Assembly (NCBI GenBank): GCA_038895375.1
Contig: JAWANM010000001.1
Coordinates: 3,587 to 67,586, forward strand
DNA from: Candidatus Pacearchaeota archaeon
Lineage (GTDB): Archaea > Nanobdellota > Nanobdellia > Pacearchaeales > UBA284
DNA: 64,000 nucleotides
Direction: 5' to 3'
The notes under the pieces are model-generated. The model was not told where the DNA came from. It was given only the letters and a program-made list of their open reading frames with translations, and made no database searches. How positions within the stretch are numbered: position 1 is the first letter of the stretch; each line of letters opens with the position of its first letter. Shown here in pieces: positions 543 through 21,381 of this stretch. Position numbers and translations under genes: made by a program.

Positions 543-747
543 CAATTCCAATTCGTTTTTTACTGGAACGAAAATTTTTTTCTGAATCTTGCTTTTTTTT
601 GTTTTTTTCTTCCTAGATTTTATTTTTCTATGTTTTCTCTTCTTTTTGCTCTTTTTCATAAAGATTTTAAAAACAAAATGGTTAATAAAGTTTCTGTTTC
701 ACGAAAAGCCACACAACATTTAAATAGAAACAAACTCTAAGCCAACT

Positions 748-1983
748 ATGAACAAATTCGTAACAACCATAGTAGTAGTGACGCTTTTAATAATCGGAAT
801 TGTAGGAGCGGCATTTTTTCTTTATCCTTACGAACCGAAAAAACCGCCGAGAGCAGACGATAGCGATTCAACGCTACATGGCATTCAAGAAGTTGTTGGC
901 TCGAACAACAAATTCGCTTTTGAGTTGTACTCCAGAATGGCCAATTACGAAGAAAATGTTTTCTTTTCTCCTTACAGTATTTATGCTGCTCTGGCAATCA
1001 CTTATGAAGGTGCAAAAGGAAGAACTGCCGAAGAAATCAAAAAAGTTTTCCATTTTCCGGAAAGCAGAGTATTGAGACCAAATTTTGCAGCAATCTACAA
1101 TTCTTTAAATGAAGAGCAAAAGAATTGTGAGCTTAAGACAGGAAACGCCTTATGGATACAAAAAGACCATCCTTTGCTTGAAGATTATAAAAGCAGAGTA
1201 GAAAAGTATTATGGCGCTAAAGCAGCCAACCTCGATTTTACTAAAGAAGAATCGAGACAAATGATTAATAATTTTATCGAAGAGCAAACAAACGGCAAAA
1301 TCAAAGATCTTATACCTAAAGGTTCTTTAGATCCAACAACTAGATTGGTTATTACAAATGCTATCTACTTCAAAGGAACCTGGTTATGGGAATTCGATCC
1401 AAAAAATACAAGAGAAATGGACTTCAAGGTAAACCAAACAAAAGTGGTAAAAGTTCCTATGATGTGTATGAAGCCAGATAAACCAAGATTCAACTATGCC
1501 GATCTAGATGATTTACAAATACTGGAGTTGCCTTACAAAGGAGAAAAAATTTCTATGCTGATTTTATTGCCGAAAGAAAATCTCGAAAGGATTGATTTAA
1601 CAGCAGAAAAAATTGAAGAATGGAAAAGTAAGATGGAAGAAACCAAATTGGACAGTATCTGCATACCAAAATTCGAACTTAAAACTAAATATTTGATGAA
1701 CGACCATCTCAAAGAATTGGGGATGCCTACCGCCTTTACTATAGAAGCGGATTTTTCTGGCATGAGTAAGGAAAAACTCTTTATCAATTTTGTAATTCAT
1801 CAAGCATACGTTAAAGTTGACGAAAAAGGAACAGAAGCGGCTGCAGCAACCGCAGTTACCATGGTGATGGCAACACCAAAAATGAAAGAATTCAAAGCAG
1901 ATCGTCCATTTATTTTTATAATTCAAGAAAAAATTACAGGAAATATTTTGTTTATAGGAAAGATAGTCGACCCTACGAAATAG
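748..1983 (+). CDS. Serpin (serine/cysteine protease inhibitor) with N-terminal TM/signal anchor
   Basis: SPYSIYAALAITYEGAKGRTAEEI and ITNAIYFKGTWLWEFD motifs. Hinge/reactive-centre loop DEKGTEAAAATAVTMVMATPK..RPFIFIIQE. N-terminal hydrophobic segment. Confidence 0.85.
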   Translation: MNKFVTTIVVVTLLIIGIVGAAFFLYPYEPKKPPRADDSDSTLHGIQEVVGSNNKFAFELYSRMANYEENVFFSPYSIYAALAITYEGAKGRTAEEIKKVFHFPESRVLRPNFAAIYNSLNEEQKNCELKTGNALWIQKDHPLLEDYKSRVEKYYGAKAANLDFTKEESRQMINNFIEEQTNGKIKDLIPKGSLDPTTRLVITNAIYFKGTWLWEFDPKNTREMDFKVNQTKVVKVPMMCMKPDKPRFNYADLDDLQILELPYKGEKISMLILLPKENLERIDLTAEKIEEWKSKMEETKLDSICIPKFELKTKYLMNDHLKELGMPTAFTIEADFSGMSKEKLFINFVIHQAYVKVDEKGTEAAAATAVTMVMATPKMKEFKADRPFIFIIQEKITGNILFIGKIVDPTK

Positions 1984-1987
1984 CGCT

Positions 1988-3211
1988 TCATCCAAGTTTC
2001 CTTTCAATTCTTAAAAGTTCATGCAGTTTTGCAAATCTTTCTTTTCCAAGAATTCCTGCTTTGATTATAGGAATTTGCCATCCTACTGCGAAGTGCGCTA
2101 GAGCATTATCGGAGGTTTCGCCAGAACGATGTGAGATTATGGGTATTAAATCATGCTTCCTCGCAAGCTCAACAACTTTTTTTGTTTCAAGCAAGCTCGC
2201 TACTTGATTCGGCTTTATTATTATAGCATTAATTGCTTTAAGCTTGATTGCTTTCTCTGCACGCTCTAAAGAAGTGCATGTCAAATCGTCACCACAAACC
2301 AAACAGTTCGTTGTTCTTGTTAGGGCAGCAAAATAATCAAAAGCTTCTTCATGAAAAGGATCTTCGACATAGAAAAGATTGTATTTTTTGATAAGCTCTT
2401 CAATGTATTGCTTCTGTTCCTCGTTTGTCAATGCCTTTTGTTTCTTTTTTTCGCTGAAATTTTTGTATTTGTAGTGCTTGGCTTGCCACAAAGAGTTTGC
2501 AGCAATATCTACTCCGAGCTTTAACTTTATATTGAATTTTTCTTTTATTTTGTCTCTAACTTCTAACATAATTTCAAGAACTTTTTCATTGTCAAGCGTG
2601 GCGGCCAAAGCGTTTTCATAAGTTAGGGTATTGTGCCATGTTTTATCTTTTTCTTTGAGTAAAGCTTTTGCTTCTTTGTATGCCTGAAGATTGATAAAAT
2701 AAGCATCGGAAAAGTTTTTTGTTTCTGGCATGATCAAAAATTCCTGAAAATCTGTTTTAAGTTCTTGTTCTGTGTGTTTACCGCCTCCGATGCAATTTCC
2801 TAGAGGCATTGGCATTTCGATTTTTTTCTCACCTGCAAGAAACTGCCATAGTTCTTTTCCTTGAGAAAAAGCCATGGCTTTCAAAACAGCAGTCTCTAAA
2901 GCGTAGAGAGCGTTTCCTCCGATGAGCGAAAAATCTTTAGTTTTGTCAAACTTTCTTACAAGTTCCTCGATTTTTGCAAGATCCTCAAAGGTTTCAAAAG
3001 TCAGTTGTTGTATAGGCTTTTGAAGCGCATTTATTACTCTAACTGAAAAGTCTATGCCTCTAATCGAAAAAGCCCTGACTTCATGCTTGCCTTTGCTCGA
3101 GCCTTCTGGAGCGCTAGCCTCAAAAGTTTTTTCCGTCTTGACAGTGACTGCAATCGTTTCTTCGTTTTTACTATTAAGAATTTTTCTCGCAAATACCTCC
3201 TTTATTTGCAT
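1988..3211 (-). CDS. eno: Enolase
   Basis: C-terminal SHRSGETSDNALAHFAVG motif. 407 aa. Adjacent to rpoK, a conserved archaeal neighbourhood. Confidence 0.9.
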   Translation of the reverse strand: MQIKEVFARKILNSKNEETIAVTVKTEKTFEASAPEGSSKGKHEVRAFSIRGIDFSVRVINALQKPIQQLTFETFEDLAKIEELVRKFDKTKDFSLIGGNALYALETAVLKAMAFSQGKELWQFLAGEKKIEMPMPLGNCIGGGKHTEQELKTDFQEFLIMPETKNFSDAYFINLQAYKEAKALLKEKDKTWHNTLTYENALAATLDNEKVLEIMLEVRDKIKEKFNIKLKLGVDIAANSLWQAKHYKYKNFSEKKKQKALTNEEQKQYIEELIKKYNLFYVEDPFHEEAFDYFAALTRTTNCLVCGDDLTCTSLERAEKAIKLKAINAIIIKPNQVASLLETKKVVELARKHDLIPIISHRSGETSDNALAHFAVGWQIPIIKAGILGKERFAKLHELLRIERKLG

Positions 3212-3241
3212 AACTATTTTCAGAAAAAGTTATATAAAAAC

Positions 3242-3541
3242 TTAACTTTCCTCGCTTGAAGTTTTTTCGCTTTCGACTTTCCTCGAAGGTTCTTCTTCGA
3301 TGAGCTCTTTTATTTCTTCTTTAAACTCTACTTTTCTAGGTTTTGGACGTTTCACTGTTATAGGTAAAACTCCAGCTTCAAATTCGGCTTCAGCTATTTT
3401 AATCGGATCATAACGCATTTCCTCTAGTTGTTCTTTACTCAACTTTATTAGTATGGGAGCGTTTGCACTAATCTGCAAAGCACGAGCTCCCAAAATTCTT
3501 GCAATCTCGTACTTCGTATATTTTTCTTGAACTTTTTTCAT
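3242..3541 (-). CDS. rpoK: DNA-directed RNA polymerase subunit K (Rpb6 homolog)
   Basis: [27 protein letters not shown] matches the Rpb6/RpoK core. Acidic C-terminal tail. Confidence 0.75.
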
Positions 3542-3568
3542 TTTTATTGATTCTTAAACTTTATTTCT

Positions 3569-4378
3569 TTATTTGCTTTTAAATTTAATTTTTTCTCGAA
3601 GTTTTTTACCTTCTTTTACCAGAGTTTCTAAAATGTCTAACAATTTTTCTATTTCGATTGCTTCTTTACCATCTTTAAGCAAGCCGTGAATTATCGGTTC
3701 TTTATCGTAAACGACAGAAACTGTAAGCTGAAGAGTTGAAGCTTCTTGTTCTTCAGAACAAGGATCTAAAACAAAGGAATCGCCAATTTTATAAGCCGTT
3801 ATCGTTACAGGAGGCTCGTTCAGAGGAAGTTTTTTCTGCGTCAAACTGCCGAATTCTATCTTGCCGTTTTCGAATTTTGGAAATTTTGTGTCTAAAAGCG
3901 CGAGAACGCCTGCAAGAGCGCTCGCATCGATAAGATTGCCATCGTCATTCAAAGCGTAAATATCTAAAAAGATTGCCCAAACTAGCTTTCCTTCCTCTAT
4001 GCACAATTTTTTGAAATCGATAAATCCAGACTCGCGAATAGCTCTATCTACGATTCTAGCCAATTTTACAGCATCTATGTCTGGCGGACCCAACTCGAAT
4101 TTTTCCGAGGCAAGCGGATGAAGTTCTGCATCCACTATAAGTATACCCTCGTCTGGCGTATCAGGAAAAGGTTCGAGAACTTCTAACTTCGTTCCTGCTA
4201 TTACTTCTGTTTCTCCTATTCTTACACGTACAGAACCTTCTGCCTTGGAAGAAACGTTGAACTCTATAAAAATGTCTCTAAATTCATAAGGTTTTCTGGC
4301 ATCAATTCTTCTTCCCTTTTCAAGCAATTCACAAATTTTCTCTTTGGTCAGATTTGAAAGCTCCATTTTATTCAGCAA
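3569..4378 (-). CDS. rrp42: Exosome complex component Rrp42 (RNase PH-like, inactive)
   Basis: RNase PH fold signature R.DGR...E.R.I....V.....GS. Last gene of the Rrp4-Rrp41-Rrp42 order. 10-nt overlap with rrp41. Confidence 0.8.
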   Translation of the reverse strand: MLNKMELSNLTKEKICELLEKGRRIDARKPYEFRDIFIEFNVSSKAEGSVRVRIGETEVIAGTKLEVLEPFPDTPDEGILIVDAELHPLASEKFELGPPDIDAVKLARIVDRAIRESGFIDFKKLCIEEGKLVWAIFLDIYALNDDGNLIDASALAGVLALLDTKFPKFENGKIEFGSLTQKKLPLNEPPVTITAYKIGDSFVLDPCSEEQEASTLQLTVSVVYDKEPIIHGLLKDGKEAIEIEKLLDILETLVKEGKKLREKIKFKSK

Positions 4379-5087
4379 TCTTTTTAAGCGCTTGTTTTTG
4401 TATTGTTTCCAGTTTCAAACAAACTTTTTTTCCAAGTTCTAAAGCTTCTTTAAGCTCTGAAAGAGTTATATGACCATCGAGATGTAACAAAGAAAGTTTT
4501 TTCGAGCGCGGAAGAAATGCTAAGGCTATATCTGTAGCTGCTTTGATCTCTTTTCCATCTTTCTTTATTTTGTATTGCTCTTCATCATGGCTAAGATCTA
4601 CAACAATAGCATTGCCGACTTTGCCAACAGAAACTGCAGTAACCAGTTCGCTCATAGGAACGCCTGCAGAGGCCAAAGCCATCGAAGCAGCGTTTATAGC
4701 AGCGCATCTTGTAGAAGCATCTGCTTCGAGAATTTCAACATAAACATCGATTACTGTATTTGGAAAAGGTTCAAGGAGTACTGCCGGCTCGAGCGCTCTC
4801 GTAATTTCATCTGAAATCTCCAAACTTCTACGGCTTGGACCAGGTCTTTTTCTTTCTGCTACAGAAAAACTTATCATGTCATAATAACATCTAAGTATTG
4901 CTTTTTTCGGATTTTGTAAATGCTGCGGATAAAGCTGTCTAGGTCCATAAACAGCTGCTATAGCTTTACTATTGCCAAAAGCAAAAAAAGCAGATCCGTC
5001 TGCTCTCTTAATTACATTTATTTTTGCTTCTATTTTTCTCGTTTCATCAAAAGCTCTACCATCGGGTCTATTGAATTTTTCGCTCAT
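4368..5087 (-). CDS. rrp41: Exosome complex exonuclease Rrp41 (RNase PH)
   Basis: RPDGRAFDETRKIEAKINVIKRADGSAFFAFGNSKAIAAVYGPR. 4-nt overlap with rrp4. Confidence 0.85.
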   Translation of the reverse strand: MSEKFNRPDGRAFDETRKIEAKINVIKRADGSAFFAFGNSKAIAAVYGPRQLYPQHLQNPKKAILRCYYDMISFSVAERKRPGPSRRSLEISDEITRALEPAVLLEPFPNTVIDVYVEILEADASTRCAAINAASMALASAGVPMSELVTAVSVGKVGNAIVVDLSHDEEQYKIKKDGKEIKAATDIALAFLPRSKKLSLLHLDGHITLSELKEALELGKKVCLKLETIQKQALKKIAE

Positions 5088-5767
5088 TTTTTCTTTGCTT
5101 TCCTTAAAAATTCTTTTACATGATCTGTTAAGCCTTCTATAAAAGGTTTTTCAACAATAATTTTTATAGCTTCTCTTGCAAGCATTTCTTCTTCTATGCT
5201 TGGGCCTTTGATCCATATTAAACCATTTTGTCCTACGATTATGCTACAGTTAGTTTCTTGTTTTACTGTCGTAACCATGCTGCCTTCTTTTCCTATAATT
5301 CTAGGTACTCTTGTCGGGTTTACTCGCATCAAAAAGCCGGAAGTTAATTTTTTGCATGTCCTATCTTTCATTGTCAGTTCTACGCTTCTAGTCTTAATAC
5401 TTCGAACTTTGCTTACTATAATGTCGTTAACATCATAATACTCTGACAAATCTTTCTTATTTACATATCCTGCACATTCTGTTATCGGCAAAAAACCGAG
5501 ATGTGGCGACAATATGTCTACAATCCATCCATTGAAAGTAATGTCTATTACTTGTCCTATTACGGTGTTTCCGACTCTAGGTATATAAGTACCACTCAAA
5601 GGAATTACTTTAACAAGTTTGTCTGTTTTTTCTAGCAAACCAAATCTTAAAGCTACTATGTCTTTTCCTTCTCTTCTCGTTCCTTCACCGGGTAAAAAAT
5701 CTTGACCCGATGCGAGAATTTCACCGGGAACTACAATTTCTCCTCTAAGCTTCTCTTTCTTTTCCAT
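5084..5767 (-). CDS. rrp4: Exosome complex RNA-binding protein Rrp4 (S1 + KH)
   Basis: S1 domain (IPRVGNTVIGQVIDITFNGWIVDI). KH domain (VPRIIGKEGSMVTTVKQETNCSIIVGQNGLIWIKG). Confidence 0.85.
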   Translation of the reverse strand: MEKKEKLRGEIVVPGEILASGQDFLPGEGTRREGKDIVALRFGLLEKTDKLVKVIPLSGTYIPRVGNTVIGQVIDITFNGWIVDILSPHLGFLPITECAGYVNKKDLSEYYDVNDIIVSKVRSIKTRSVELTMKDRTCKKLTSGFLMRVNPTRVPRIIGKEGSMVTTVKQETNCSIIVGQNGLIWIKGPSIEEEMLAREAIKIIVEKPFIEGLTDHVKEFLRKAKKK

Positions 5768-5996
5768 TTTCTTCCTCGATTTTTGATGCTATTTTAATCA
5801 ATTCGAAAAAATTTGGTAAAAATAAAAGCAAGCGCCATCTTGAGTGCGGCGGTGCAAACTTGTTTATCCATTCATAAAAGAAAAAATTTTTTTCCACCCG
5901 GACCTTGATTTCTCTATTCTGCTCTTCTTCGATTTCCTTCAAAAGTTTTTCTATAAAATTGTCTTGAATTGTTTCTTCATAATTCATTTTCTTCAA
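5745..5996 (-). CDS. Hypothetical small protein (83 aa), possibly spurious
   Basis: ORF fills the rrp4-SBDS gap and overlaps both neighbours (23 nt and 4 nt). Low-complexity K/E/F-rich sequence. No recognisable motif. Confidence 0.2.
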   Translation of the reverse strand: MKKMNYEETIQDNFIEKLLKEIEEEQNREIKVRVEKNFFFYEWINKFAPPHSRWRLLLFLPNFFELIKIASKIEEENGKEREA

Positions 5997-6676
5997 GATT
6001 TAATTTCTTCGGTAATTGCAGATCCTTTTGTTAAATTGTTTAATTTATTATAAAATTCGAATTGCATTCCAGCCGGCAAATCAAGAATACATTTTAAAGA
6101 GCCATCGTTGAGCCATTCCTCTTTCTCTTTTCTGAATTTTTGTAAAAAAGAATATACTTGAGCTGTATATTGTGCCGGGACTGTAACGCTGATTTTTTTT
6201 GTTGCAATTTTTATTGGAATCTTTTTTTCGAGTTGTTTTAGTATGGCCAAAGCTTGTTCCATCGTGTCTCGATCATCTATTTTAACTCCTATCTCTTTGA
6301 TTGTATTTTCGAGCAGCGTTAACGTGTATGGCATATTCGTCCTTGGGTCTATACAATTTTTAGCTAGAAAATCTAGAATTTGCTTTAATTTTGCTTCTCT
6401 CGCTTTATCTCTGTACTCTTGCGGCAGTTGTATTTCCCCCTGCTTCAAAATCTTTGCAGCAATTTCATAAATGTCTTGAGTTCCAAAAGCTGTTTTCAAA
6501 TCATTGGAAGAAGCCCTAAGACCTTTTTTGTGATCTGTAAATATAACGTCTGTTACGAGAATTTCTCTAATAGCACCAACATCAAGTTTTCCTTTTTTGA
6601 ATTCTAATGCTTTATCACAATCAACAAGTATTTCAAAAGATTTATTTTTAACTCTTAATTTTGCGATAGTATCCAT
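5993..6676 (-). CDS. sdo1: Ribosome maturation protein SBDS/Sdo1
   Basis: VTDVIFTDHKKGLRASSNDLKTAFGTQDIYEIAAKIL is the SBDS N-terminal (FYSH) domain. Canonical position between psmA and rrp4. Confidence 0.8.
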   Translation of the reverse strand: MDTIAKLRVKNKSFEILVDCDKALEFKKGKLDVGAIREILVTDVIFTDHKKGLRASSNDLKTAFGTQDIYEIAAKILKQGEIQLPQEYRDKAREAKLKQILDFLAKNCIDPRTNMPYTLTLLENTIKEIGVKIDDRDTMEQALAILKQLEKKIPIKIATKKISVTVPAQYTAQVYSFLQKFRKEKEEWLNDGSLKCILDLPAGMQFEFYNKLNNLTKGSAITEEIKS

Positions 6677-6685
6677 TTTGAAGAA

Positions 6686-7408
6686 TTACTTTACATACTT
6701 GCTAAGCTGTTCCGGAGACAATTTTTTTGTTTTTTGATCTGATTTGGTAACATAATAAACGTCAAATCTTAGAAGATTGAAAGCCTTGCCGAGAATTTTT
6801 TTGAAAATGTTCAATGCCAATTTTATTCCTTGTTCTATTGTCATGCTTTCCTTATAAGACTCTCTCAGCATTTCAATGATTTTATCATCATTCTCGCCTA
6901 TGGCCGTAGCTTTATAACAAAAATAATTTCCTGTAACTTCACTAACGAAAAGTTTGACTGTTTCGTCTGTATTGACCCCGGCAATCATTATCTTTGTTCC
7001 GAAAGGCCTAACTCCGCTATATTGAGTATAAGCTTGTTTTATGTTTGCTATTTCCTTCATAACGCTTTCGACATCTATAGGCTCTTCGTAAGTTATTTTA
7101 TGCTGTTGTGCAAGAACTTGTGCTCTTTCTATAAGAATTCGAGCATCGCTCAAAACGCCTGCTGCACTAGCAATAATATGATCATCAACTTGATAAATTT
7201 TCATCGAAAATCCGGAATCCATCAGAGGATCGACAATTCTTTTATCTGTAACTATTAGCACGCCATCGCTGCAAACCATACCGATGCTTGCACTTCCTAG
7301 TCTTACTGTTTTTTCAGCATACTCTACCTGCAGCAATCTGCCTTCTGGCGAAAAAAGAGTGGCTGCTCTATCATAACCCATAACTTGATGTTGCATCTCA
7401 AAAGCCAT
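6686..7408 (-). CDS. psmA: Proteasome subunit alpha
   Basis: GYDRAATLFSPEGRLLQVEYA alpha-subunit N-terminus. 240 aa. Confidence 0.9.
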   Translation of the reverse strand: MAFEMQHQVMGYDRAATLFSPEGRLLQVEYAEKTVRLGSASIGMVCSDGVLIVTDKRIVDPLMDSGFSMKIYQVDDHIIASAAGVLSDARILIERAQVLAQQHKITYEEPIDVESVMKEIANIKQAYTQYSGVRPFGTKIMIAGVNTDETVKLFVSEVTGNYFCYKATAIGENDDKIIEMLRESYKESMTIEQGIKLALNIFKKILGKAFNLLRFDVYYVTKSDQKTKKLSPEQLSKYVK

Positions 7409-7537
7409 TTTAAAAATCGTTTAATTATTTTTTCTTTCCTTTACCTTTTACTCTTATTAAAAAAGAGAGATGATTTATAAAGGTTTCTATATAGCGCTTT
7501 CTAAAAGTCAAGAAAATAAAGCACGAGTTTAAAATTG

Positions 7538-7555
7538 AAAGCTCCGAGGAGCTTT
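7538..7555. promoter_or_regulatory. Perfect 8-bp inverted repeat AAAGCTCC-GA-GGAGCTTT in the divergent psmA / pilin-cluster intergenic region, followed by T5
   Basis: Read directly from the sequence. Could be an operator site or a hairpin. Confidence 0.3.
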
Positions 7556-7623
7556 TTGCTTTTAAATAGCATGCATAAAAAAACTTTTAAACTTATGAAG
7601 CGATAACTAACAAAAGAGGGAGA

Positions 7624-8142
7624 ATGAAAAAAGCACAAGCAATGGGTGTTCCTTTTCAGCTTATCTTTTCCTTAATACTTGTAGCTGCTGTAATCGTTTT
7701 TGGTTTTTTTGCAATAAGAATGTTTTTGCAGAGAGCAGAACAAGCAAAATTTGGGGTTGCTTTTAAAGAATTTGAACAAGAAATACAAAGCGTTTGGCAA
7801 GAAAGCGGTGAAAGCAATAAAACAATAAGCGTGCTTGTTCCGAAAAAAGTAGAAGCTGTTTGCTTTGTGAACAGAAGCGCAAGCTGTAGAGATCCTTATG
7901 GAATTTACGATTTTTGTAATTCAATAAATTTATATTCTAGTAATAAAGAAAATTTTTTCTTTTATCCTCTTGGAATAGCAGAGCAATACAATAGCAAATC
8001 GGCATGGTCTTTATTGTGTCAAGATCATTCTTGTGTAAAACTAAGCAGCGTACAATGTTTTTTCAAAAATGAAAGAAATGAAGTAAAAATTAGATTGGTA
8101 AAAGAGTATGGAGATCCTCTAATTAAGCTTTACTCTGCCTGA
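7624..8142 (+). CDS. Class III signal peptide (archaeal type IV pilin-like) protein, Cys-rich
   Basis: N-terminus MKKA|QAMGVPFQLIFSLILVAAVIVFGFFAI fits the [KR][GA]|Q plus hydrophobic-stretch prepilin pattern. GGGAG RBS 6 nt upstream. 9 Cys in the mature part. Confidence 0.55.
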   Translation: MKKAQAMGVPFQLIFSLILVAAVIVFGFFAIRMFLQRAEQAKFGVAFKEFEQEIQSVWQESGESNKTISVLVPKKVEAVCFVNRSASCRDPYGIYDFCNSINLYSSNKENFFFYPLGIAEQYNSKSAWSLLCQDHSCVKLSSVQCFFKNERNEVKIRLVKEYGDPLIKLYSA

Positions 8143-8156
8143 AGCTTTGATCAAAA

Positions 8157-9074
8157 ATGAATAAAAAAGCTATAGAATTTGCATGGATCTTTTCGATTAT
8201 CATAGGTGCTATCGTCTTGTTTCTTGCTTTTTACTTTGTCGGCTCGCAAATATTTTTGAAAGAAAAAACAGAAGCTACCGAACGAGCGCATAGTCTTGAC
8301 ATATTGTTCAATCCTTTCGCTTATCTTGGTGCAATGGGTGCTGTTACTGCTAAGCCGATAGAATTGCAAAAAACAGCAAGCCTTGAGTTTGATTGCTTTG
8401 CAGAAGGACTCGGAAGTAATGTGATAATGGTTGATTCTGGCTTGCCGAGAAGCGTATATGACAAGTATATTTTTGCAGAAAATTTTCGTGCAAAAAAAAT
8501 ACAAACAATAAGCAAAGCTTTTTCAATGCCGTGGCGTGTTGCCGATTTGATTTTTGTTTTTCCTTCAACAAAAGAGTATTGTTTTGTAAGAGCTCCACAA
8601 AAACTAAAACAAGAGCTAGAACTGCTTAACATTACAAACATAAAACTAGAAAATTCGATAGAAAATTGCGAGGAAAATGCTACAAAAGTTTGTTTTTCAA
8701 GGCTAGAAAGTTGTGAAATAAAAGTTAATGGCTTAGAAGCAGATTATTCAAAAGGTTACGTTGAAAAGCAAAACAAAAAATTGTATTTTGCTGGCGATGA
8801 TTATGCTTTAATGCTAGGAGCTATTTTTTCTAGTAAAGAATTGTACGATTGTAATGTTAAAAGAATCGCTTCAAGGCTTGAAGCGCAGATTGAAGTTTAT
8901 GAAGAAAAAAGAAGAATGATGGCACAAAGATGCACAAGCATGATAAATTTGGAGCGTTTAGAGCAAAAAGCATCACGGCTTCTCGCGAATGTAAATGAAG
9001 AAAATATGAATGCTTTGTATGATGCAGCTAAAGAAATTGAAAATTTAAACTCTTATGATTGTCCTTTGTTTTAA
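8157..9074 (+). CDS. Class III signal peptide (pilin-like) protein
   Basis: MNKKA|IEFAWIFSIIIGAIVLFLAFYF. Rest predicted extracellular. Confidence 0.5.
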   Translation: MNKKAIEFAWIFSIIIGAIVLFLAFYFVGSQIFLKEKTEATERAHSLDILFNPFAYLGAMGAVTAKPIELQKTASLEFDCFAEGLGSNVIMVDSGLPRSVYDKYIFAENFRAKKIQTISKAFSMPWRVADLIFVFPSTKEYCFVRAPQKLKQELELLNITNIKLENSIENCEENATKVCFSRLESCEIKVNGLEADYSKGYVEKQNKKLYFAGDDYALMLGAIFSSKELYDCNVKRIASRLEAQIEVYEEKRRMMAQRCTSMINLERLEQKASRLLANVNEENMNALYDAAKEIENLNSYDCPLF

Positions 9075-9546
9075 AATGCTTAGAAAAACTCAGTTCAAGA
9101 TACAAGAAATGGCGTTTGTTTTGCTTGCAGTAGTCTTGCTTTTCGGACTTATTTTTGTATTTTTTGCGAGATTCGAATTTGCAAGAGTTAGACAGCTAGC
9201 AGAAAAAACAAGAGAAGAAAGAGTAATAACTCTTGTTAGAAGTATAGCATCTATGCCAGAGCTGAGATGTTCGGGAAGTATTGTAAAGACAAGCGAAGCT
9301 GCTTGCCTCGATCTTGACAAAGTTCGTGCATTCAATGAAAGCTCGGCTTTAAGAGAAAGATATAAAAAATTATGGACAAGCAGCTATATTACAGAAGTCG
9401 TTGTTCAAGAGATTTATCCTTCGAATAAAGTTTATTATGTTTATAAAGGGCAAGCAAGCAATTTAAGCTATTTTAGCTTTTTTCCTTTATGCTCTCAAGA
9501 AAATTGTAGTTTGGCGAGATTGAGCGTTGGTATAAAGATAGACTGA
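9055..9546 (+). CDS. Pilin-like/N-terminal TM protein
   Basis: N-terminal ..KIQEMAFVLLAVVLLFGLIFVFFA hydrophobic helix. Overlaps the upstream gene by 20 nt. Cys-containing ectodomain. Confidence 0.4.
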   Translation: MIVLCFKMLRKTQFKIQEMAFVLLAVVLLFGLIFVFFARFEFARVRQLAEKTREERVITLVRSIASMPELRCSGSIVKTSEAACLDLDKVRAFNESSALRERYKKLWTSSYITEVVVQEIYPSNKVYYVYKGQASNLSYFSFFPLCSQENCSLARLSVGIKID

Positions 9547-9556
9547 AAGTTGAAAA

Positions 9557-10039
9557 ATGAAACGTAAAGCACAGGAAGAGATGATGGGTTTTTTGATAAT
9601 TGTTGTAATTGTAGTAATAATAGGTCTTGTTTTTCTTGCTTTTTCATTAAGACAAAAAACAAAAAGCGTTGAGCAACATAAAATGCAGGCAGATGATTTG
9701 CTTCAGGCGGTGCTTCTTTATACTACCGACTGCAAAAAAGATTATATGCTGAATGTAAGAGAACTCATCAGAGAATGCAATACTAATGAAGGAAATTGTG
9801 ATGATCAAACAAGGATGTGCGAAAAACTGAACGAAACTTTAGGAAAACTTCTAGATAAAGCCTTGGGCACTAAAATAGAGAATGCTTTTATTCATGGCTA
9901 TTGCCTTGAAATAAACAGCTCAAGATACTTGAAAATAGAAAAAGGCAACTTGACTGGAAATTATTTTAGCTCTGTTGTTCCTATACCTGTTGGCTATAAT
10001 GCTGAAGCTATTGTTAGATTAAGGTTATATCATGGCTAA
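9557..10039 (+). CDS. Class III signal peptide (pilin-like) protein, Cys-rich
   Basis: MKRKA|QEEMMGFLIIVVIVVIIGLVFLAF. Mature part has 8 Cys (TDCKKD..ECNTNEGNCDDQTRMCEKL..GYCLEI). Confidence 0.55.
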   Translation: MKRKAQEEMMGFLIIVVIVVIIGLVFLAFSLRQKTKSVEQHKMQADDLLQAVLLYTTDCKKDYMLNVRELIRECNTNEGNCDDQTRMCEKLNETLGKLLDKALGTKIENAFIHGYCLEINSSRYLKIEKGNLTGNYFSSVVPIPVGYNAEAIVRLRLYHG

Positions 10040-10121
10040 ATTGTTTTGCTTTGTTCAGATTGGCGTTAGTTCTCGAATGTTCATTAGCTTTGATATTTTG
10101 AAAGCCGAGTAGCTTTAGTGC

Positions 10122-10616
10122 TTAAATGTTTATAGATAAATTTAGTTTGTTGACTTGTAGCACAGGTTTCAATTTTTCGCGTTTTTTTTCACGAATCCTT
10201 ACAAACTTAATTAAACCGAACTTTTCAAGAAGCATCAAGTCTTGCTTTACTGCTTTAAAGTTTCTTCCTGAAATTTTAGCAAGCTTATAAATAGAATCTG
10301 GTTTTTTTGTTTTTATTAAATACAAAAGTCTTGCTTTTTCATTGCTCAATAAAGCCCTGATGTCTTGAAGCTCTATTTTCGGTTGAGGCAAATGCACAGG
10401 AGGTATGCTTTTTGTAACTTCTTCTAGTTTTTCTGTTACTTTTGTTCTCAACTTTTTAAAAGTTGGAACCCATAAAGCAAGAGGTGTTTGCTCTAAAACG
10501 CTTGAAATACGTCCTTTTTTAATTTGCTCTTCTTGTTCTTGCTCTTTTTTCTTATCTTTAAAGCCTAGAGTTATGGTTAAATTTTTTACTCTTTCCATCT
10601 TCGTCGTAAATTTCAA
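10122..10616 (-). CDS. Winged-helix (ArsR/MarR-like) transcriptional regulator
   Basis: C-terminal region IRALLSNEKARLLYLIKTKKPDSIYKLAKISGRNFKAVKQDLMLLEKFGLIKFVR is a typical wHTH. Convergent with the pilin cluster. Confidence 0.55.
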   Translation of the reverse strand: MKFTTKMERVKNLTITLGFKDKKKEQEQEEQIKKGRISSVLEQTPLALWVPTFKKLRTKVTEKLEEVTKSIPPVHLPQPKIELQDIRALLSNEKARLLYLIKTKKPDSIYKLAKISGRNFKAVKQDLMLLEKFGLIKFVRIREKKREKLKPVLQVNKLNLSINI

Positions 10617-10920: not shown

Positions 10921-13158
10921 ATGAAATTACTTAAAAAGATAGCACCTATTGCTGTCGGAGCAGTTTTAGGACTAGCAACTATGGGTAGCGCGATAGCAGC
11001 AGATCTAGGAACATGGAAAAACAACTTCCCAGCAGCAAACACGGTTGTTGTTGCTTACGATAGTGATGCTGCAGCCATCGCAGAAATTGCAAACTACCTA
11101 GGCCTAAGAGGCGGGACAACAATAACCGGTGAAAGCTGGGGATTTGAAAAATCAACAAACAAACTCAACTTAGGAGAAAACTTAAGTGAGATAAGACCTA
11201 CAATTTCAAAAGAACAACTGCCAACAATTCTTGCAGAAGGTACTTACTGGGACGAAGAAAATAATGAGCACAAGTATACGCAAAAAATAACAGTAGGCGA
11301 TCTCACATTAACGCACTTCCAGGATTATGACTACAAGGACAACGAACCTACACTCGGCTTTAAAATAACAGATACCAGCTCTATCTTGAATTACACCCTT
11401 ACATTCAGCGGAAGCGGACCTGAAATAGGAGACATGAATGGAACATCAATAGAAATGCTTGGTAGAGAGTTTTTCATCAGCAAAGCTGAGGCTGGAAAAA
11501 TAACACTATTAGAAACATCAACAAGAGCTACAATAGAAGAAGAGGAAACAGCTACTGTTGGAGGAAAAACAATAAAAATTAATTATTTCGTTGAAGATGG
11601 GAAGAAAGTATCTTTAATTGTTAATGGAGAGGAGACCAACCCTATAGAAGCAGGAAAAACATACAAGCTTCGTGACGGAACTGTTGTCGGAGTAAAAACA
11701 ATAATATTTGACAGAAGAGAAGGCCGTAAGAGTAAAGTTGTAGTAACAGTGGGAACAGGAAAAATAGAGCTTATCAATGATACAGAAGTAAAAATTAATG
11801 ATAAGACAGTATATGGTTTAAAATCATACATTGATGTACCCAGTAGCAATTTGAAATCGATAACTCTTGAATGGATAGCAGACGATGATTATTACATCGG
11901 GGCTGGTGACGAGCTTGTAATGCCTGGACTTAAGGCATTAAAGCTCATGATGACAGAAATGGTGTTCCCAGCAGGAGAAGACATAACAATAAAAGGAGAT
12001 GGAAGAAAAGCCAAGCTTGAGGTTCCGATAAAAGACGGAACAGCAAATATTGTTCTTTTAGAAGGTGATGGTACAAACTGGACAACAATCGGAGAAGAAG
12101 GTAGGGTATTAAAGACGACTCTTGGAAATGCGCTTATCGACCTAACTACAAGAGATAGGTTCTTCACAACATACATAAACGGTGAAGAAGGAGAATCTTA
12201 TTATTGGGAAGTGGAAAGCTTCGACACAGACAACAACAAAGTAACATTTAAAACATTAGTAGGAAGTAAAAGCTGCACTGTCGCAGAAGGTGATGATTGT
12301 GAAGTTGGCGAAGTTTCCTTCACAGTCACGGGCCTAAATGCAACTGCTAAAAAGGTGAACATAACCGCAGGTGAGTACGTCAATTTCCACACAATAGTGT
12401 CCAGCAAAGGAGCTCTTTTCTACCTTCCACAAACGGAAAATGGGAGTATATGGGGTTATCTAAATTCCTCAAACCCTACGGGATGGGTCTTAGGAATGTA
12501 CGAAGAGGACAAAGAAGGATACATTGGCTTCGGAAACTGGACAGCGTTTTTATTCGGATTTAATGACGATGGAAAAGCGACTGTTGCTGATGTAGATAGC
12601 GAGAAATGGGCTGGTGAAGGGATGCTAAAGAAAGGTGAAGACACTGAGATTGGTTATGTAGAATCGCCACTAGCGACAAAAGTTGTTTATGAAACTGGTG
12701 GAAGGCAAGATTATGCAATTGTAACATACTATGGCGAAGAGGTTTATGGAAATGTGTTCATTGCAGGAGCTGGTGCAGCAGCGGGTGGTGGAGAAGTTGC
12801 AATAACATACCCTGAGTTGACAGAAAGCATGAAAGCAACAAAGAACATCATAAGCATTGGTGGTTCTGGAGTCAACCCATTCAGCGCAGAGCTATTGTTC
12901 GGCTCACCTACGCTTGTTTATGGAAGCGACTCAAGATGGGTGAGCGCTACAGGCGTTGATGGTGTTGGCAAGGCGCTTGTTCAGCTATATCAAGGTACAT
13001 CAGCATGCCAGAAAGTTTGCTTGCTTGTAGCAGGATTCGAAGCAAGCGACACATTGAAAGCTGCAAGATTCTTAACAACAAAGGCTGATGAGTTGGCAGG
13101 AAAAACAAAAGCTGTGCTCGACACAACAGGAGACACTGCAAGCGTAATAACAACCTAA
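10921..13158 (+). CDS. S-layer / major cell-surface protein (secreted, 745 aa)
   Basis: Signal peptide MKLLKKIAPIAVGAVLGLATMGSAIAADLG. GGAGG SD at 10909-10913. GC content and codon usage differ from neighbours (highly expressed look). T/S/G-rich beta-type composition. T-rich terminator 13180-13230. All antisense ORFs inside are spurious. Confidence 0.6.
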   Translation: MKLLKKIAPIAVGAVLGLATMGSAIAADLGTWKNNFPAANTVVVAYDSDAAAIAEIANYLGLRGGTTITGESWGFEKSTNKLNLGENLSEIRPTISKEQLPTILAEGTYWDEENNEHKYTQKITVGDLTLTHFQDYDYKDNEPTLGFKITDTSSILNYTLTFSGSGPEIGDMNGTSIEMLGREFFISKAEAGKITLLETSTRATIEEEETATVGGKTIKINYFVEDGKKVSLIVNGEETNPIEAGKTYKLRDGTVVGVKTIIFDRREGRKSKVVVTVGTGKIELINDTEVKINDKTVYGLKSYIDVPSSNLKSITLEWIADDDYYIGAGDELVMPGLKALKLMMTEMVFPAGEDITIKGDGRKAKLEVPIKDGTANIVLLEGDGTNWTTIGEEGRVLKTTLGNALIDLTTRDRFFTTYINGEEGESYYWEVESFDTDNNKVTFKTLVGSKSCTVAEGDDCEVGEVSFTVTGLNATAKKVNITAGEYVNFHTIVSSKGALFYLPQTENGSIWGYLNSSNPTGWVLGMYEEDKEGYIGFGNWTAFLFGFNDDGKATVADVDSEKWAGEGMLKKGEDTEIGYVESPLATKVVYETGGRQDYAIVTYYGEEVYGNVFIAGAGAAAGGGEVAITYPELTESMKATKNIISIGGSGVNPFSAELLFGSPTLVYGSDSRWVSATGVDGVGKALVQLYQGTSACQKVCLLVAGFEASDTLKAARFLTTKADELAGKTKAVLDTTGDTASVITT

Positions 13159-13372: not shown

Positions 13373-13993
13373 ATGCTTAAGCCACTGGAAACAAAAGAAG
13401 CGAGAGAAAAAAGAATAAGAAGGCAAAATACAATTTTTGGCATTGTAATCGCGATTATTATGATAGCTGGAACAATCGGCTGGGCAATAACAAGTCGCGA
13501 AACAGAAAAACAACAAAGCTACAATGGATTCAAATTCAAAAATAATGAAAATTTTTGGCAAACGACCATCAAAGTTTATGGACAAAACTTTTTACTACAA
13601 ACAAGTTTTTTGCCTCAAGAAGTCGAAAGCGTTGCTAGCAATTTAGAAACGCTAAGTTTGGAAAAATTTTTAGGAAAAGTTGTCTTTTTTGTTGCTTTCT
13701 CTGCTTCAGAGCTACAAGCAGCACAAGAACTTGCAATAAATTTACAATATTTCGTTGTAAGAATGCAAATGGCTTGTTCTTCGGAGCATGCCAACGAAAG
13801 TTTTTGTTTAGAAAAGCCAATCAAAAGCTGCGACGATGCTGATCTGGATACTGTAATTATACTTTTAGAGGAGTCGAACGAAACAAGAATAGATTTTGAA
13901 AAAGGTTGTTTAAGAATTTCTGGAAAAGAAACAGAAATTATAAAGGCTGCTGACAAAACTCTTTTTGTTGCTTTCGGAATAATGAAAGGCTAA
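13373..13993 (+). CDS. Membrane-anchored hypothetical protein (N-terminal TM, extracytoplasmic domain)
   Basis: Basic N-terminus then TM IFGIVIAIIMIAGTIGWAI. No motif recognised. Confidence 0.4.
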   Translation: MLKPLETKEAREKRIRRQNTIFGIVIAIIMIAGTIGWAITSRETEKQQSYNGFKFKNNENFWQTTIKVYGQNFLLQTSFLPQEVESVASNLETLSLEKFLGKVVFFVAFSASELQAAQELAINLQYFVVRMQMACSSEHANESFCLEKPIKSCDDADLDTVIILLEESNETRIDFEKGCLRISGKETEIIKAADKTLFVAFGIMKG

Positions 13994-13994
13994 A

Positions 13995-14594
13995 ATGAAA
14001 GGAAAAAAGATATTTATTTTTTTACTGCTAATCGCTATATTCTTTGCTTCAGTTTTTTTCTTGAAAAAAGAAATTTCCGACCTTTCCGAGCCTAATTTTC
14101 AATACAAGAGCTTGGAATTTGTAAAAACAAATTTGGACAACTTAACGCTCTATGCAACAAGCGTCTTGCTAAAAAACAATGGTATAAGCATGCAGACTTT
14201 TTACTTTAGAAACGACCCTAGAAAGCTCGGTAAAATTCCTTTCGATGCAGAAATGAACATAACAAAAAGAGGCTATGTTTCTTTTACGCCACAAGCTCTT
14301 GATTGTGAAGAAGTAAACATTGCTGCTTGGAACATTGGATATTTTTTTGCTCGAATCGGAACCGAAATGAAAGCAGGAGTTACAGAAAAAACAGAAAAAA
14401 GCAATGCAACAATAATTAATTGTTCGAGCAGCGATAGAGAAATGATTGTAATTTTGAAGGCACAAGCTAAAAAAACAAAAATTTATCAAGATAAGGAAAA
14501 TAAGAACTGCATCATTATCGAGGCTAAAGAATGCAGGCTAATCGAAGCTACAGAAAGATTGATTCTAGAAGTGCTTTTGAAGCAAAAAGCATAA
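13995..14594 (+). CDS. Secreted hypothetical protein
   Basis: Signal/TM MKGKKIFIFLLLIAIFFASVFFL. Abuts the upstream gene with a 1-nt spacer. Confidence 0.4.
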   Translation: MKGKKIFIFLLLIAIFFASVFFLKKEISDLSEPNFQYKSLEFVKTNLDNLTLYATSVLLKNNGISMQTFYFRNDPRKLGKIPFDAEMNITKRGYVSFTPQALDCEEVNIAAWNIGYFFARIGTEMKAGVTEKTEKSNATIINCSSSDREMIVILKAQAKKTKIYQDKENKNCIIIEAKECRLIEATERLILEVLLKQKA

Positions 14595-15442: not shown

Positions 15443-17104
15443 TTATCTTTTACCGAGTAGTTTTTGTTTTCTTCTTATGCGTGCAATCATAATAATTATG
15501 CCAAGCAAAGCAACAATTACGCATGCAACAATAACAACAAGCCATCTCCATAATTCTGCTTTACCAAACTTTTTCTCTAAGATACTGCATTCTTTTGTTT
15601 CCTCTGGTTTTCTTTCTGCTGTGCCGCAATTATTCAAATCGATGCATGTTCTTGTTTTTACACCATCTACGCAAGAGCTCCAAGCAGTGCAATTCCAATT
15701 TGGTTCGCATTTACTCGGCTCTGAAATTGCTCTTAGCATTAAATCGACTTTGTTGTTGCTTATGCTCAAAACAGTTATTGAAAAATCATTTATGTTGTTC
15801 GCGTTCAAATCAAATTCTTTTGTTTCATTGATGTAAATAGTAGCAACAATCGAGTTGATTTCCAGAGTTGTTGAATTGCTCGTTATGTTCTTTACGGTAA
15901 TTATATGACTTTCATTACCAAGAGTAAAGTTGATTTTCTCGTCTTTTGCAACATTGTTTATAGTTTTGTTTGTTCCTGTTATGTTGCCAACGTCGTGTAT
16001 TCGAGCGGGGTTGCATTCTTTAGTATTGACATTACAGCCATAAGTGCAATATTCTATTGTTCGCCATGCATTGTTGATGCATTTTTGTAAAGCATCTCCG
16101 GAACATCTTTTTGCATTTTCAGTACATACTGTACCGCTTTCGCCATTTTCGCTTGTAGAAGACTTTATAGTTATACTCCATTTTTCAGAGCTGTCCGAAT
16201 TGCCAGCATAATCATAACACCTAACCTGCCATTCATAAGTGCCTCTTTCGAGTTCTATATCTGAAAATTCTTGCTGTGTACCATTTTCTATGCTAGTATC
16301 TGTTTGTCTTAAGCTGCCATCTATATACAAAGAACAATTCTTAATGCCAAAATTATCTGTAACATTGTACTTGAAATCTATGGTTGTTGAAGTTGTATTA
16401 TAATTGTTTGTCGGCGACTTTAAATGCACTTCTGGCTTTGTTGTGTCTATTGTCAAAGTTCTGTTGCTCGAGAAGTTACAATTGCCAGCAGCATCACAAG
16501 CTTGACAAGCCCATAAATAGCGTGCGTTTGCGGCTAAGCTCTGTGCAAATGTTGTTGTATTGTTTGTTCCTGAAACATTGCTCGAGTTTTTTGCACCCCA
16601 GCCAAACCAATTGCCGTAAAGCGTTATGTTACTCAAATTGTAATTGTCTTGAGCTGTACAATTAAAAGTTATGTTTGTAGTTGAAAAATTGGCATAAGCG
16701 ACTGGCGCGTTTAACATTATATTTGGTGCTGTAGTATCGTTTACTTTGAGTTCTAATGCAATGTTCCAAGATCCTGTTGCATTAGTGATAGTTATTGTTA
16801 AATTATAATCTCCAGGCTCTGAAACTGTGACGTTAAACCAAAAATGTTCAATAGAGTTGTTCATAACAAGACCGTCTTTTTCCCAGCTTAACACGCTTGA
16901 GGTGTTAGAAAAATTTGCTTCAGCAACACTGCTACCATTGGAATCTGCAATAAATATAAAGCCATCAGGCAAAGTTATATTAACTTGAGTTATATTTGAT
17001 TCTTCTGTTTCGTAACTATTGTTTATTGAAATATTAATCAAAGATGAAACGTCTTCGTTGATTGAATTTTCTTGTAGCCAAGCAGAATATTCCGCAAAAG
17101 TCAT
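15443..17104 (-). CDS. Cell-surface protein with C-terminal TM anchor and N-glycosylation-sequon-rich Ig-like repeats; signal peptide out of frame (see finding)
   Basis: C-terminus WRWLVVIVACVIVALLGIIIMIARIRRKQK (TM plus basic tail). Shares a ~75-aa block with the giant protease (NCTAQDNYNLSNITLYGNW...WACQACDAAGNC). A 45-codon ORF starting at 17171 encodes a signal peptide in another frame. Confidence 0.6.
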   Translation of the reverse strand: MTFAEYSAWLQENSINEDVSSLINISINNSYETEESNITQVNITLPDGFIFIADSNGSSVAEANFSNTSSVLSWEKDGLVMNNSIEHFWFNVTVSEPGDYNLTITITNATGSWNIALELKVNDTTAPNIMLNAPVAYANFSTTNITFNCTAQDNYNLSNITLYGNWFGWGAKNSSNVSGTNNTTTFAQSLAANARYLWACQACDAAGNCNFSSNRTLTIDTTKPEVHLKSPTNNYNTTSTTIDFKYNVTDNFGIKNCSLYIDGSLRQTDTSIENGTQQEFSDIELERGTYEWQVRCYDYAGNSDSSEKWSITIKSSTSENGESGTVCTENAKRCSGDALQKCINNAWRTIEYCTYGCNVNTKECNPARIHDVGNITGTNKTINNVAKDEKINFTLGNESHIITVKNITSNSTTLEINSIVATIYINETKEFDLNANNINDFSITVLSISNNKVDLMLRAISEPSKCEPNWNCTAWSSCVDGVKTRTCIDLNNCGTAERKPEETKECSILEKKFGKAELWRWLVVIVACVIVALLGIIIMIARIRRKQKLLGKR

Positions 17105-17224
17105 GGGAAAAAGAAGTAAAAATAATAATGCTAAAGAAAATGCAAAAGTAAAAATTAAATTTTTTTTTCATTTGCATCACCTTTTTAGCTTCAAAGCAAG
17201 TGCATGCTAAAAATCTTTCGTTTT

Positions 17225-21061: not shown

Positions 21062-21381
21062 TTTTTAAAATCTCCTGGTTTACATTCTCCTCGATAATAA
21101 GCCCATTCTTCGCATTTCGAACCATCTGGAAAAATGCAAACGCCGTACTGGCCTTTTTCGTTTTCTCTAATTTCAAGAGTTCCATTATTTTGAATGCAAT
21201 AAACACTTGCCGGATTTGGTATTGACTGATTTGCTTTTTTTTCTTTATTTGAATTCAAGAATTTTAGCATTACCAAAACTAAAGCAAAAACTAGAACTAA
21301 AGTCGTGAAAAGCAAAATTTTTTTCATCTTGCCTCTTTTCGAAAATAGAAATTTTCTGCATTTATAAATTTTCTCGATCAA
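21058..21381 (-). CDS. Small secreted DUF333-domain protein
   Basis: Signal peptide then NPASVYCIQNNGTLEIRENEKGQYGVCIFPDGSKCEEWAYYRGEC. Stop overlaps the start of the giant gene (ATGA). Confidence 0.6.
   Translation of the reverse strand: MIEKIYKCRKFLFSKRGKMKKILLFTTLVLVFALVLVMLKFLNSNKEKKANQSIPNPASVYCIQNNGTLEIRENEKGQYGVCIFPDGSKCEEWAYYRGECKPGDFKK

Follow-up and report, generated by a model that had tools for sequence, protein, structure and literature searches.

The stretch of DNA analyzed here, called the window throughout, comprises 64,000 nucleotides with a G+C content of about 34% and originates from a metagenome-assembled genome (MAG) of Candidatus Pacearchaeota, a lineage of the DPANN archaea. 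We focused on a cassette of four consecutive genes on the forward strand, P1 to P4, the products of which combine a pilin-like N-terminus with a cysteine-rich head. A first-pass annotation of the window had placed these open reading frames (ORFs) at the same positions and had recognized typical N-termini in three of them, while according to our data all four fit. The genes are given below, the vertical bar marking the putative cleavage site.

7624-8142, + strand: P1, 172 aa, N-terminus MKKA|QAMGVPFQLIFSLIL..., 6 Cys in the ectodomain (ORF and family alignment)
8157-9074, + strand: P2, 305 aa, N-terminus MNKKA|IEFAWIFSIIIGAIVLFLAFYF..., 8 Cys; the largest subunit
9076-9546, + strand: P3, 156 aa, N-terminus MLRKT|QFKIQEMAFVLLAV..., 4 invariant Cys; alternative start at 9055
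9557-10039, + strand: P4, 160 aa, N-terminus MKRKA|QEEMMGFLIIVVIVV..., 5 Cys (family alignment)

Since the intergenic gaps amount to only 14, 1 and 10 nt, the four genes constitute a tight operon. For P3, the start at 9076 was favored over the upstream ATG at 9055 by the NCBI annotation of the same MAG as well as by the orthologues. P2 was 100% identical to the NCBI entry 'hypothetical protein QXW65_00095'. The mature parts had been described as rich in cysteine, which was confirmed by their composition: Cys accounts for 2.6-3.5% of P1 to P4 versus 0.95% in the other genes of the window, all of these residues lie beyond the N-terminal helix, and the majority of them is invariant. The alignment of the P1 family disclosed invariant residues at F11, I14, F15 and I18 together with conserved cysteines. 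In the P4 family, G11, F12 and I15 were invariant, Q6 and E8 nearly so. Scans of P1 to P4 and 63 family members against Pfam and NCBIfam gave nothing significant; what appeared below the threshold was transmembrane noise (FtsL, DUF6377 and, in two of the 63 members with an E-value of 0.08, Pilin_N). The P3 family comprised 1171 representatives of 50%-identity clusters at E<=1e-3, 426 of which were still recovered at E<=1e-10.

All four proteins share a short basic leader, a [KR][GAST] junction and a hydrophobic helix of about 20 residues. The class III-type leaders that had been claimed for P1, P2 and P4 (MKKA|QAMGVPFQLIF.., MNKKA|IEFAWIF.. and MKRKA|QEEMMGFLII..) were thus also found in P3, to which only a comparable N-terminus had been attributed: its start MLRKT|QFKIQEMAFVLL fits the pattern, and 18 out of 20 P3 orthologues exhibit K[G/A/S]|Q. 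The junction was located by a regular expression demanding [KR] at position -2 and G/A/S/T at position -1, by which these two positions are preset, and was found in 65 out of 69 orthologues of the four families. Gln followed at position +1 in 50 of these 65 proteins, namely in 9/14 (P1), 11/21 (P2), 19/20 (P3) and 11/11 (P4) cases. The leader in front of the junction varied between 4 and 31 aa among the orthologues, and conservation set in exactly at the junction.

The specificity of this motif was determined in 98 related loci of Pace- and Woesearchaeota (about 0.9 Mb, from genomes and metagenomes). As a control we used non-overlapping ORFs of at least 120 aa from the same loci that possess an N-terminal transmembrane (TM) helix. 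The sequence [KR][GAS]Q resided just before the TM helix in 40/52 P1, 17/62 P2, 72/82 P3 and 63/67 P4 proteins. It was present in only one out of 41 of the neighboring anchor proteins T5 and T6 (see below) and in five out of 100 other ORFs with an N-terminal TM helix, all five being members of a further family, X238, which is also described below. The motif therefore does not simply arise from the positive-inside rule, as it is nearly absent from the control proteins. The junction agrees with the experimentally mapped EppA-type sites KGQ and RAQ of Methanococcus maripaludis pilins, for whose processing the Gln at position +1 is essential (PMC4371748, PMC4390842). Cleavage just ahead of the invariant Phe (G|F in P4, A|F in P3) was considered as well and rejected, P1 having mostly Pro at position -1 and P2 being variable there.

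Family comparisons, which drew on about 60 orthologues per family, revealed that in P1 to P4 the conservation of the junction and the helix is about double that of the heads. The mean column identity was 0.47-0.78 for the eight columns preceding the TM helix, 0.48-0.63 for the 20 columns of the helix and 0.26-0.33 for the remainder of the proteins. No such excess was seen in T5 and T6, where the corresponding values were 0.24, 0.23-0.38 and 0.27-0.32. By use of hhalign, the N-terminal modules of P1 and P2 were linked with a probability of 94.5% over 39 columns, those of P1 and P4 with 88% and those of P3 and P4 with 30%. The similarity was confined to this module, save for a weak signal between P1 and P4, and the heads were not linked. 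The mature parts had been regarded as unrelated to each other, and apart from the weak P1/P4 signal this view was corroborated. A cross-family alignment yielded the pattern [KR][KR][GAS](Q)-x(2-6)-F-x-x-[IVL], in which one Phe is invariant in all four families. A conserved N-terminal helix combined with divergent heads is a hallmark of type IV pilins (PMC4371748).

When the P1 profile was compared with 177,635 PDB sequences, the sole significant match was to residues 5-55 of PilE1 (8pfb; E 5.9e-4). In this type IV pilin of Streptococcus sanguinis, the region forms the alpha-1 helix. The profiles of P2, P3 and P4 found no match among the PDB sequences, and a pooled N-terminal profile ranked PilE1 first in the PDB without reaching significance (E 0.11). 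With one canonical DPANN pilin (KGQAAMEFLMTYGW), hhalign detected a weak similarity only, the probability being 22% when the N-terminal profile was used and 0.6% in the case of P2.

P2 and P3 were also modeled by AlphaFold2 on the basis of the family alignments, with confident results. The P2 model (pLDDT 86, pTM 0.80) predicted a helix of 49 residues (3-51), followed by a short linker of low confidence, beta and alpha/beta domains and a C-terminal helical bundle. For P3 (pLDDT 88) the predicted helix comprised 56 residues (3-58) and was succeeded by short helices and an alpha-beta loop and then by a four-stranded antiparallel sheet, which is the order of elements in a classical pilin. Structure searches with the P2 model detected generic helical bundles only. 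Those with P3 retrieved PDC/Cache sensor domains and the ribosomal protein uS3 with low Z-scores, the best Foldseek E-value being 0.18; these matches were not taken as a sign of homology.

The cassette is part of a larger unit. The order P1-P2-P3-P4 was kept throughout the 98 related loci, a result of the synteny comparison that the first-pass annotation had recommended, and the cassette is also borne by the complete genomes CP070794.1 and CP061211.1. Where the loci contained enough flanking DNA, P4 was with few exceptions followed by a winged helix-turn-helix (wHTH) gene on the opposite strand, an S-layer gene, T5 and T6, the last two being located behind the S-layer gene in most of these loci. 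In the window, the corresponding genes are the following:

10122-10616, - strand: winged-helix protein of the HVO_A0114 family (PF25212, E 1.7e-14), convergent with P4 and divergent from the S-layer gene
10921-13158, + strand: probable S-layer protein, 745 aa, with a Sec/signal peptidase I (Sec/SPI) signal peptide (..SAIA|AD) and no C-terminal membrane anchor
13373-13993, + strand: T5, 206 aa, a plain signal-anchor protein; 4 invariant Cys, conserved in its position behind the S-layer gene
13995-14594, + strand: T6, 199 aa, a signal-anchor protein; 4 Cys, conserved in its position behind T5

The convergent wHTH regulator postulated earlier was hence recovered with its family. The adjacent gene had likewise been named an S-layer gene. 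In favor of this assignment, the 745-aa protein possesses a Sec signal peptide, and its orthologue in one related locus (L001; E 7e-124) matches the S_layer_C domain PF05124, as does, faintly, that of L016; the protein of the window itself showed no match in Pfam. Judged by these sequence features, it is probably an S-layer protein. Forty-one ORFs orthologous to it were present in the related loci, and the complete ones examined revealed a signal peptide, a non-hydrophobic C-terminus and no anchor. P1 to P4, the wHTH protein, the anchorless S-layer protein, T5 and T6 form a conserved envelope module. The left flank of the cassette is variable among the related loci; upstream of P1 in the window, the other strand encodes exosome subunits, SBDS and the proteasome alpha subunit (psmA).

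Some further observations were made at these loci. Insertions recur between P3 and P4 in a cassette that is otherwise intact (L002 11462-12984; L007 10457-12034; L011 2297-2749; L017 11443-12050). The inserts encode a GNAT acetyltransferase, an NTP_transf_2/HEPN pair, a multi-pass membrane protein of 525 aa and small ORFs. T6 orthologues carry long charged cytoplasmic tails. Beyond T6, the reverse strand of the window encodes two large secreted proteins (15443-21381), one of 1278 aa with DUF333, papain-C1 protease and beta-helix domains and 37 Cys, the other of 553 aa with an Ig domain and 19 Cys. Homologues recur in the vicinity of the S-layer module in several related loci. At positions 748-1983 of the window, this DPANN archaeon encodes a full-length serpin (PF00079, E 1e-120), the N-terminus of which includes a hydrophobic segment.

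The motif scan identified a fifth protein with a class III-type junction in the window, together with a companion gene:

28592-29308, - strand: X238, 238 aa, member of a small family, with the canonical junction MKKRG|QVTLFIVIAISIV
26809-28611, - strand: Y600, Sec-secreted protein of 600 aa directly downstream of X238, a candidate for a displayed or adhesin-like partner

FlaFind-type rules demand that the hydrophobic domain starts directly after the cut. X238 (KRG|QVTLFIV) satisfies such a rule, as hydrophobic residues come right after its cleavage site. Y600 had no match in Pfam. The pairing of X238 and Y600 was kept in L099-L105. In five related loci (L004, L044, L068, L084 and L091), X238 homologues were situated just upstream of P1 and in the same direction, L091 possessing an extra copy on the opposite strand, and on contig L098 an X238-type ORF lies together with P3. 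In some lineages the envelope module is thus preceded by this fifth class III protein and by large Cys-rich secreted proteins. In L004, L044, L068 and L084, X238 is followed by one or two such proteins of 550-1457 aa with 23-61 Cys and then by P1 to P4, all co-directional (secreted proteins of L004 at 2558-8268, of L044 at 4311-8227 and of L068 at 3869-8242). Pfam gave no informative domain for them, and they are candidates for displayed or adhesin proteins of the system. In L091, a trypsin-domain protein takes the place of the Cys-rich protein in the same order. X238 probably belongs to the same system as P1 to P4. Five different pilin-like genes (one plus four) are thus arrayed with the gene of a large secreted protein, a layout similar to that of bacterial minor-pilin/adhesin operons (cited in PMC4858521).

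Upstream of P1, the first-pass annotation had noticed a perfect palindrome, which we located as follows:

7538-7555, no strand: perfect 8+2+8 palindrome AAAGCTCCGAGGAGCTTT in the divergent psmA/P1 intergenic region, just upstream of the TATA-like box TTTTAAATA

The palindrome occurs once in the window. Its core was present in none of the 98 related loci, in which matches with up to three mismatches occurred at chance expectation. A function of the palindrome is therefore unsupported, and its role as an operator was rejected.

Among known systems, the N-termini of P1 to P4 recall the EppA-processed Epd pilins of Methanococcus maripaludis (EpdA-E, 'system 1' of the archaeal type IV filaments), with which they share the basic leader, the [KR][G/A]|Q junction with Gln at position +1, an acidic residue a few positions further on and the hydrophobic helix that follows. 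The Epd system needs several different minor pilins, and the genes of some of them lie apart from those of the motor (PMC4371748, PMC4390842, 10.64898/2026.04.22.720090). Unlike the Epd pilins, P1 to P4 lie outside the Pfam families Class_IIIsignal and Pilin_N, their acidic residue is not fixed at position +5, and their polar spacer is longer. Furthermore, no genes for EppA, EpdL or EpdJ/K were found near the cassette, the heads are novel, and the genomic partner is an S-layer gene.

In bacteria, the minor-pilin/adhesin operon fimU-pilVWXY1E of Pseudomonas aeruginosa and the minor pseudopilins GspH-I-J-K of type II secretion have the presumed role of a priming or tip complex (cited in PMC4858521). 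These systems resemble the cassette in that a fixed gene order encodes four (plus one) pilin-like proteins which differ from each other, include one much larger member and share only the N-terminal helix. In some lineages, a large secreted protein would be co-transcribed with the cassette. There is no detectable homology, so that the resemblance is an analogy only, and the junction is of the archaeal type [KR][GA]|Q instead of G|F with E5.

Two archaeal systems connect pilin-like or class III proteins with the S-layer. The stator proteins ArlF/ArlG (FlaF/FlaG) of the archaellum are monotopic proteins derived from pilins (archaellins), whose ectodomains lie under the S-layer and bind it (PMC4425475, PMC8667602). 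With them, a coupling of pilin-like proteins to the S-layer has a precedent; unlike P1 to P4, they are encoded in archaellum operons beside ArlH/I/J and possess beta-sandwich ectodomains, while the cassette has no archaellum context, different predicted folds and the [KR][GA]|Q junction. The bindosome of Sulfolobus (BasABC and class III sugar-binding proteins) makes no long pili and forms envelope complexes with the S-layer protein that affect the S-layer pattern (PMC3047682). P1 to P4 would be similar to it as class III signal-peptide proteins integrated in the envelope together with the S-layer. They differ from the bindosome in that the latter consists of solute-binding proteins linked to ABC transporters and is assembled by the adjacent ATPase-platform pair BasE/BasF.

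The best explanation of these data is that P1 to P4 are of the minor pilin or pseudopilin kind and not subunits of a major filament. More specifically, we give about even chances to the proposal that they are accessory pilin-like proteins cut at [KR][GAS]|Q, which would assemble into a short heteromeric structure of the envelope that is coupled to the S-layer. In such a scheme, a class III-type signal would insert each protein into the membrane in N-in/C-out orientation, and a prepilin peptidase of the EppA/PibD kind, encoded elsewhere, would cleave [KR][G/A/S]|Q on the cytoplasmic face. The four conserved helices might then bundle to a short heteromeric stem bearing four different disulfide-stabilized heads between the membrane and the S-layer. 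The complex would most likely connect to or pass through the S-layer, where it could prime or cap a short structure similar to a type IV filament that displays large secreted proteins, or else tether the S-layer. We infer that P1 to P4 would undergo leader cleavage and hetero-oligomerization, contact the S-layer and depend on a motor.

A number of observations weigh against this proposal. The hydrophobic core of P1 to P4 begins about 5-10 residues past the junction, after a polar spacer such as QEEMMG or QFKIQEMA, so that the four proteins do not comply with the FlaFind-type rule; the canonical DPANN pilin of L102 (RKG|QAAMEFLMTYGW) likewise starts partly polar. The residue at position -1 of the window's own P3 is Thr, Gln at position +1 is missing from many P2 orthologues, and the Pfam models Class_IIIsignal and Pilin_N did not match the four families. 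The AlphaFold models, which the first-pass annotation had suggested as a check, supported its idea of a pilin or pseudopilin set by the long N-terminal helices with globular heads and did not support it in that the heads of P2 and P3 matched no solved pilin. It is hence to their N-terminal module and overall architecture, and not to the heads, that the proteins owe the label 'pilin-like'. That annotation had also stated that no assembly ATPase or peptidase is encoded in the window. Indeed, T2SSE ATPase, T2SSF platform and A24 peptidase were found neither in the window, by Pfam on 42 ORFs and a six-frame motif scan, nor within 10 kb on either side of the cassette in the 98 loci. Regular expressions for motor genes (Walker A motif of T2SSE, GxGD motif of A24) were applied to the window and the 98 loci; their only match, an SMC/Rad50-like ATPase, was discarded. 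Hence, of the earlier pilin/pseudopilin assignment, the pilin-type N-termini stood in all four proteins, while no head matched a pilin and no motor was adjacent. Synteny and the constant lack of motor genes nearby mean that the cassette is linked to the S-layer gene and not to a pilus motor.

Motor components, which are indirect evidence for a motor in these organisms, did appear near X238 homologues, in one lineage only. The contig L102/L103, which harbors an X238/Y600 pair with 40% identity, carries genes for a T2SSF platform protein and a KaiC/FlaH-like ATPase, together with those of two prepilins, one canonical (KGQAAMEF) and one of bacterial type (G|FTLMELL). On this archaeal-looking contig, where the pilus-related genes occupy positions 543-4855, the T2SSF gene is split, and the archaeal pilin (RKG|QAAMEFLMTYGWAILI) lies beside the N-methyl prepilin of bacterial type (KNG|FTLMELLVVL), a pairing that is unusual. 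For other DPANN archaea the literature is divided: FlaI, FlaJ and FlaK have been annotated in Woesearchaeota (PMC8407392), and type IV pilus systems have been reported in Nanoarchaeota and other DPANN (PMC6142677; 10.64898/2026.04.22.720090), while according to a preprint, which also speaks against the proposal, type IV pilus components are missing from DPANN genomes (10.1101/2020.05.14.094862).

The strongest alternative is that the leaders are retained. P1 to P4 would then be type II single-pass proteins (N-in/C-out), the four TM helices of which make up a specific hetero-tetrameric complex, and this complex would, together with T5 and T6, tether or space the anchorless S-layer protein; neither a prepilin peptidase nor a motor would be involved, and KK[GA]Q would be a cytoplasmic juxtamembrane motif with another role. 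We consider this explanation possible, if rather unlikely. It accords with the near-universal linkage to the wHTH gene, the S-layer gene, T5 and T6, with pilus machinery never being adjacent, with an S-layer protein devoid of a membrane anchor, and with heads that are unlike known pilins, the nearest structural neighbors of P3 being membrane-anchored PDC/Cache ectodomains. Furthermore, the conservation of the TM segment could equally stem from TM-TM packing, and the pilin-derived monotopic proteins ArlF/ArlG, which bind the S-layer, provide a precedent (PMC4425475, PMC8667602). Retained leaders, however, leave unexplained why the [KR][GAS]|Q junction occurs on four unrelated heads and is missing from the plain anchors of the same loci, and why conservation sets in precisely at this junction although the leaders in front of it differ in length. 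Nor do they account for the co-directional array with a canonical class III protein, which recurs among the loci, or for the match of the P1 profile to a pilin alpha-1 helix.

That P1 to P4 are structural subunits of a long type IV pilus for attachment to a host cell, as the first-pass annotation had envisaged, we regard as improbable. Such a pilus could invoke the same N-terminal evidence as the accessory pilin-like complex, and type IV pilus systems have been reported in DPANN relatives (PMC6142677, 10.64898/2026.04.22.720090). The cassette, however, encodes four single-copy proteins of 156-305 aa with unrelated heads in a fixed order and includes no small duplicated gene of the major-pilin type. 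The N-terminal helices differ between the families, while co-polymerizing major pilins share theirs, and a canonical KGQxxxEF pilin was absent from the window and from the cassette loci. Because the cassette is linked to the wHTH, S-layer and anchor genes and never to ATPase or platform genes, a host-attachment filament suits the gene content poorly, and an accessory pilin-like complex coupled to the S-layer fits better. Least credible of all is the assumption that P1 to P4 are ordinary Sec substrates from which SPI removes the hydrophobic segment to release soluble secreted proteins. A basic N-terminus followed by a hydrophobic segment would suit it, but the hydrophobic runs comprise 20-23 residues, which in P2 and P3 are placed by AlphaFold2 within continuous helices of 49-56 residues. 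The combination of an h-region of about 7-15 aa with a small-x-small site was not found in P1 to P4: no AxA-type site follows the segment, whereas the neighboring S-layer protein has a short h-region and an AIA|A site. Moreover, the segment is the most conserved part of the proteins, which is unexpected for a discarded signal peptide.

The data suggest a pilin-derived envelope complex that has previously not been described. Proteins of the class III pilin-like kind are already known; new are four families of them in a new genomic context. A more speculative idea, which we advance with considerable doubt, is that P1 to P4, with T5 and T6, constitute a pilin-derived scaffold independent of a motor, whose helix-bundled membrane pillars hold and space the anchorless S-layer. 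If true, it would represent a previously unknown way of S-layer attachment in archaea, and pilins would, after ArlF/ArlG, have been repurposed independently for a second time.

Most surface proteins of DPANN archaea lack an annotation, and little is known about how these organisms construct their envelope and make contact with their hosts. The cassette defines four widespread families, currently termed 'hypothetical', that possess a pilin-type N-terminal module and are genomically tied to an S-layer gene. If the proteins are processed, they would make up a conserved pilin-like set that is genomically apart from any motor, and would be candidates for a structure crossing or holding the S-layer. 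If they are not processed, P1 to P4 would be candidates for the membrane anchor that the S-layer protein itself lacks. In both cases, they are concrete targets for metaproteomics, cryo-electron tomography and heterologous processing assays in Methanococcus or Haloferax.

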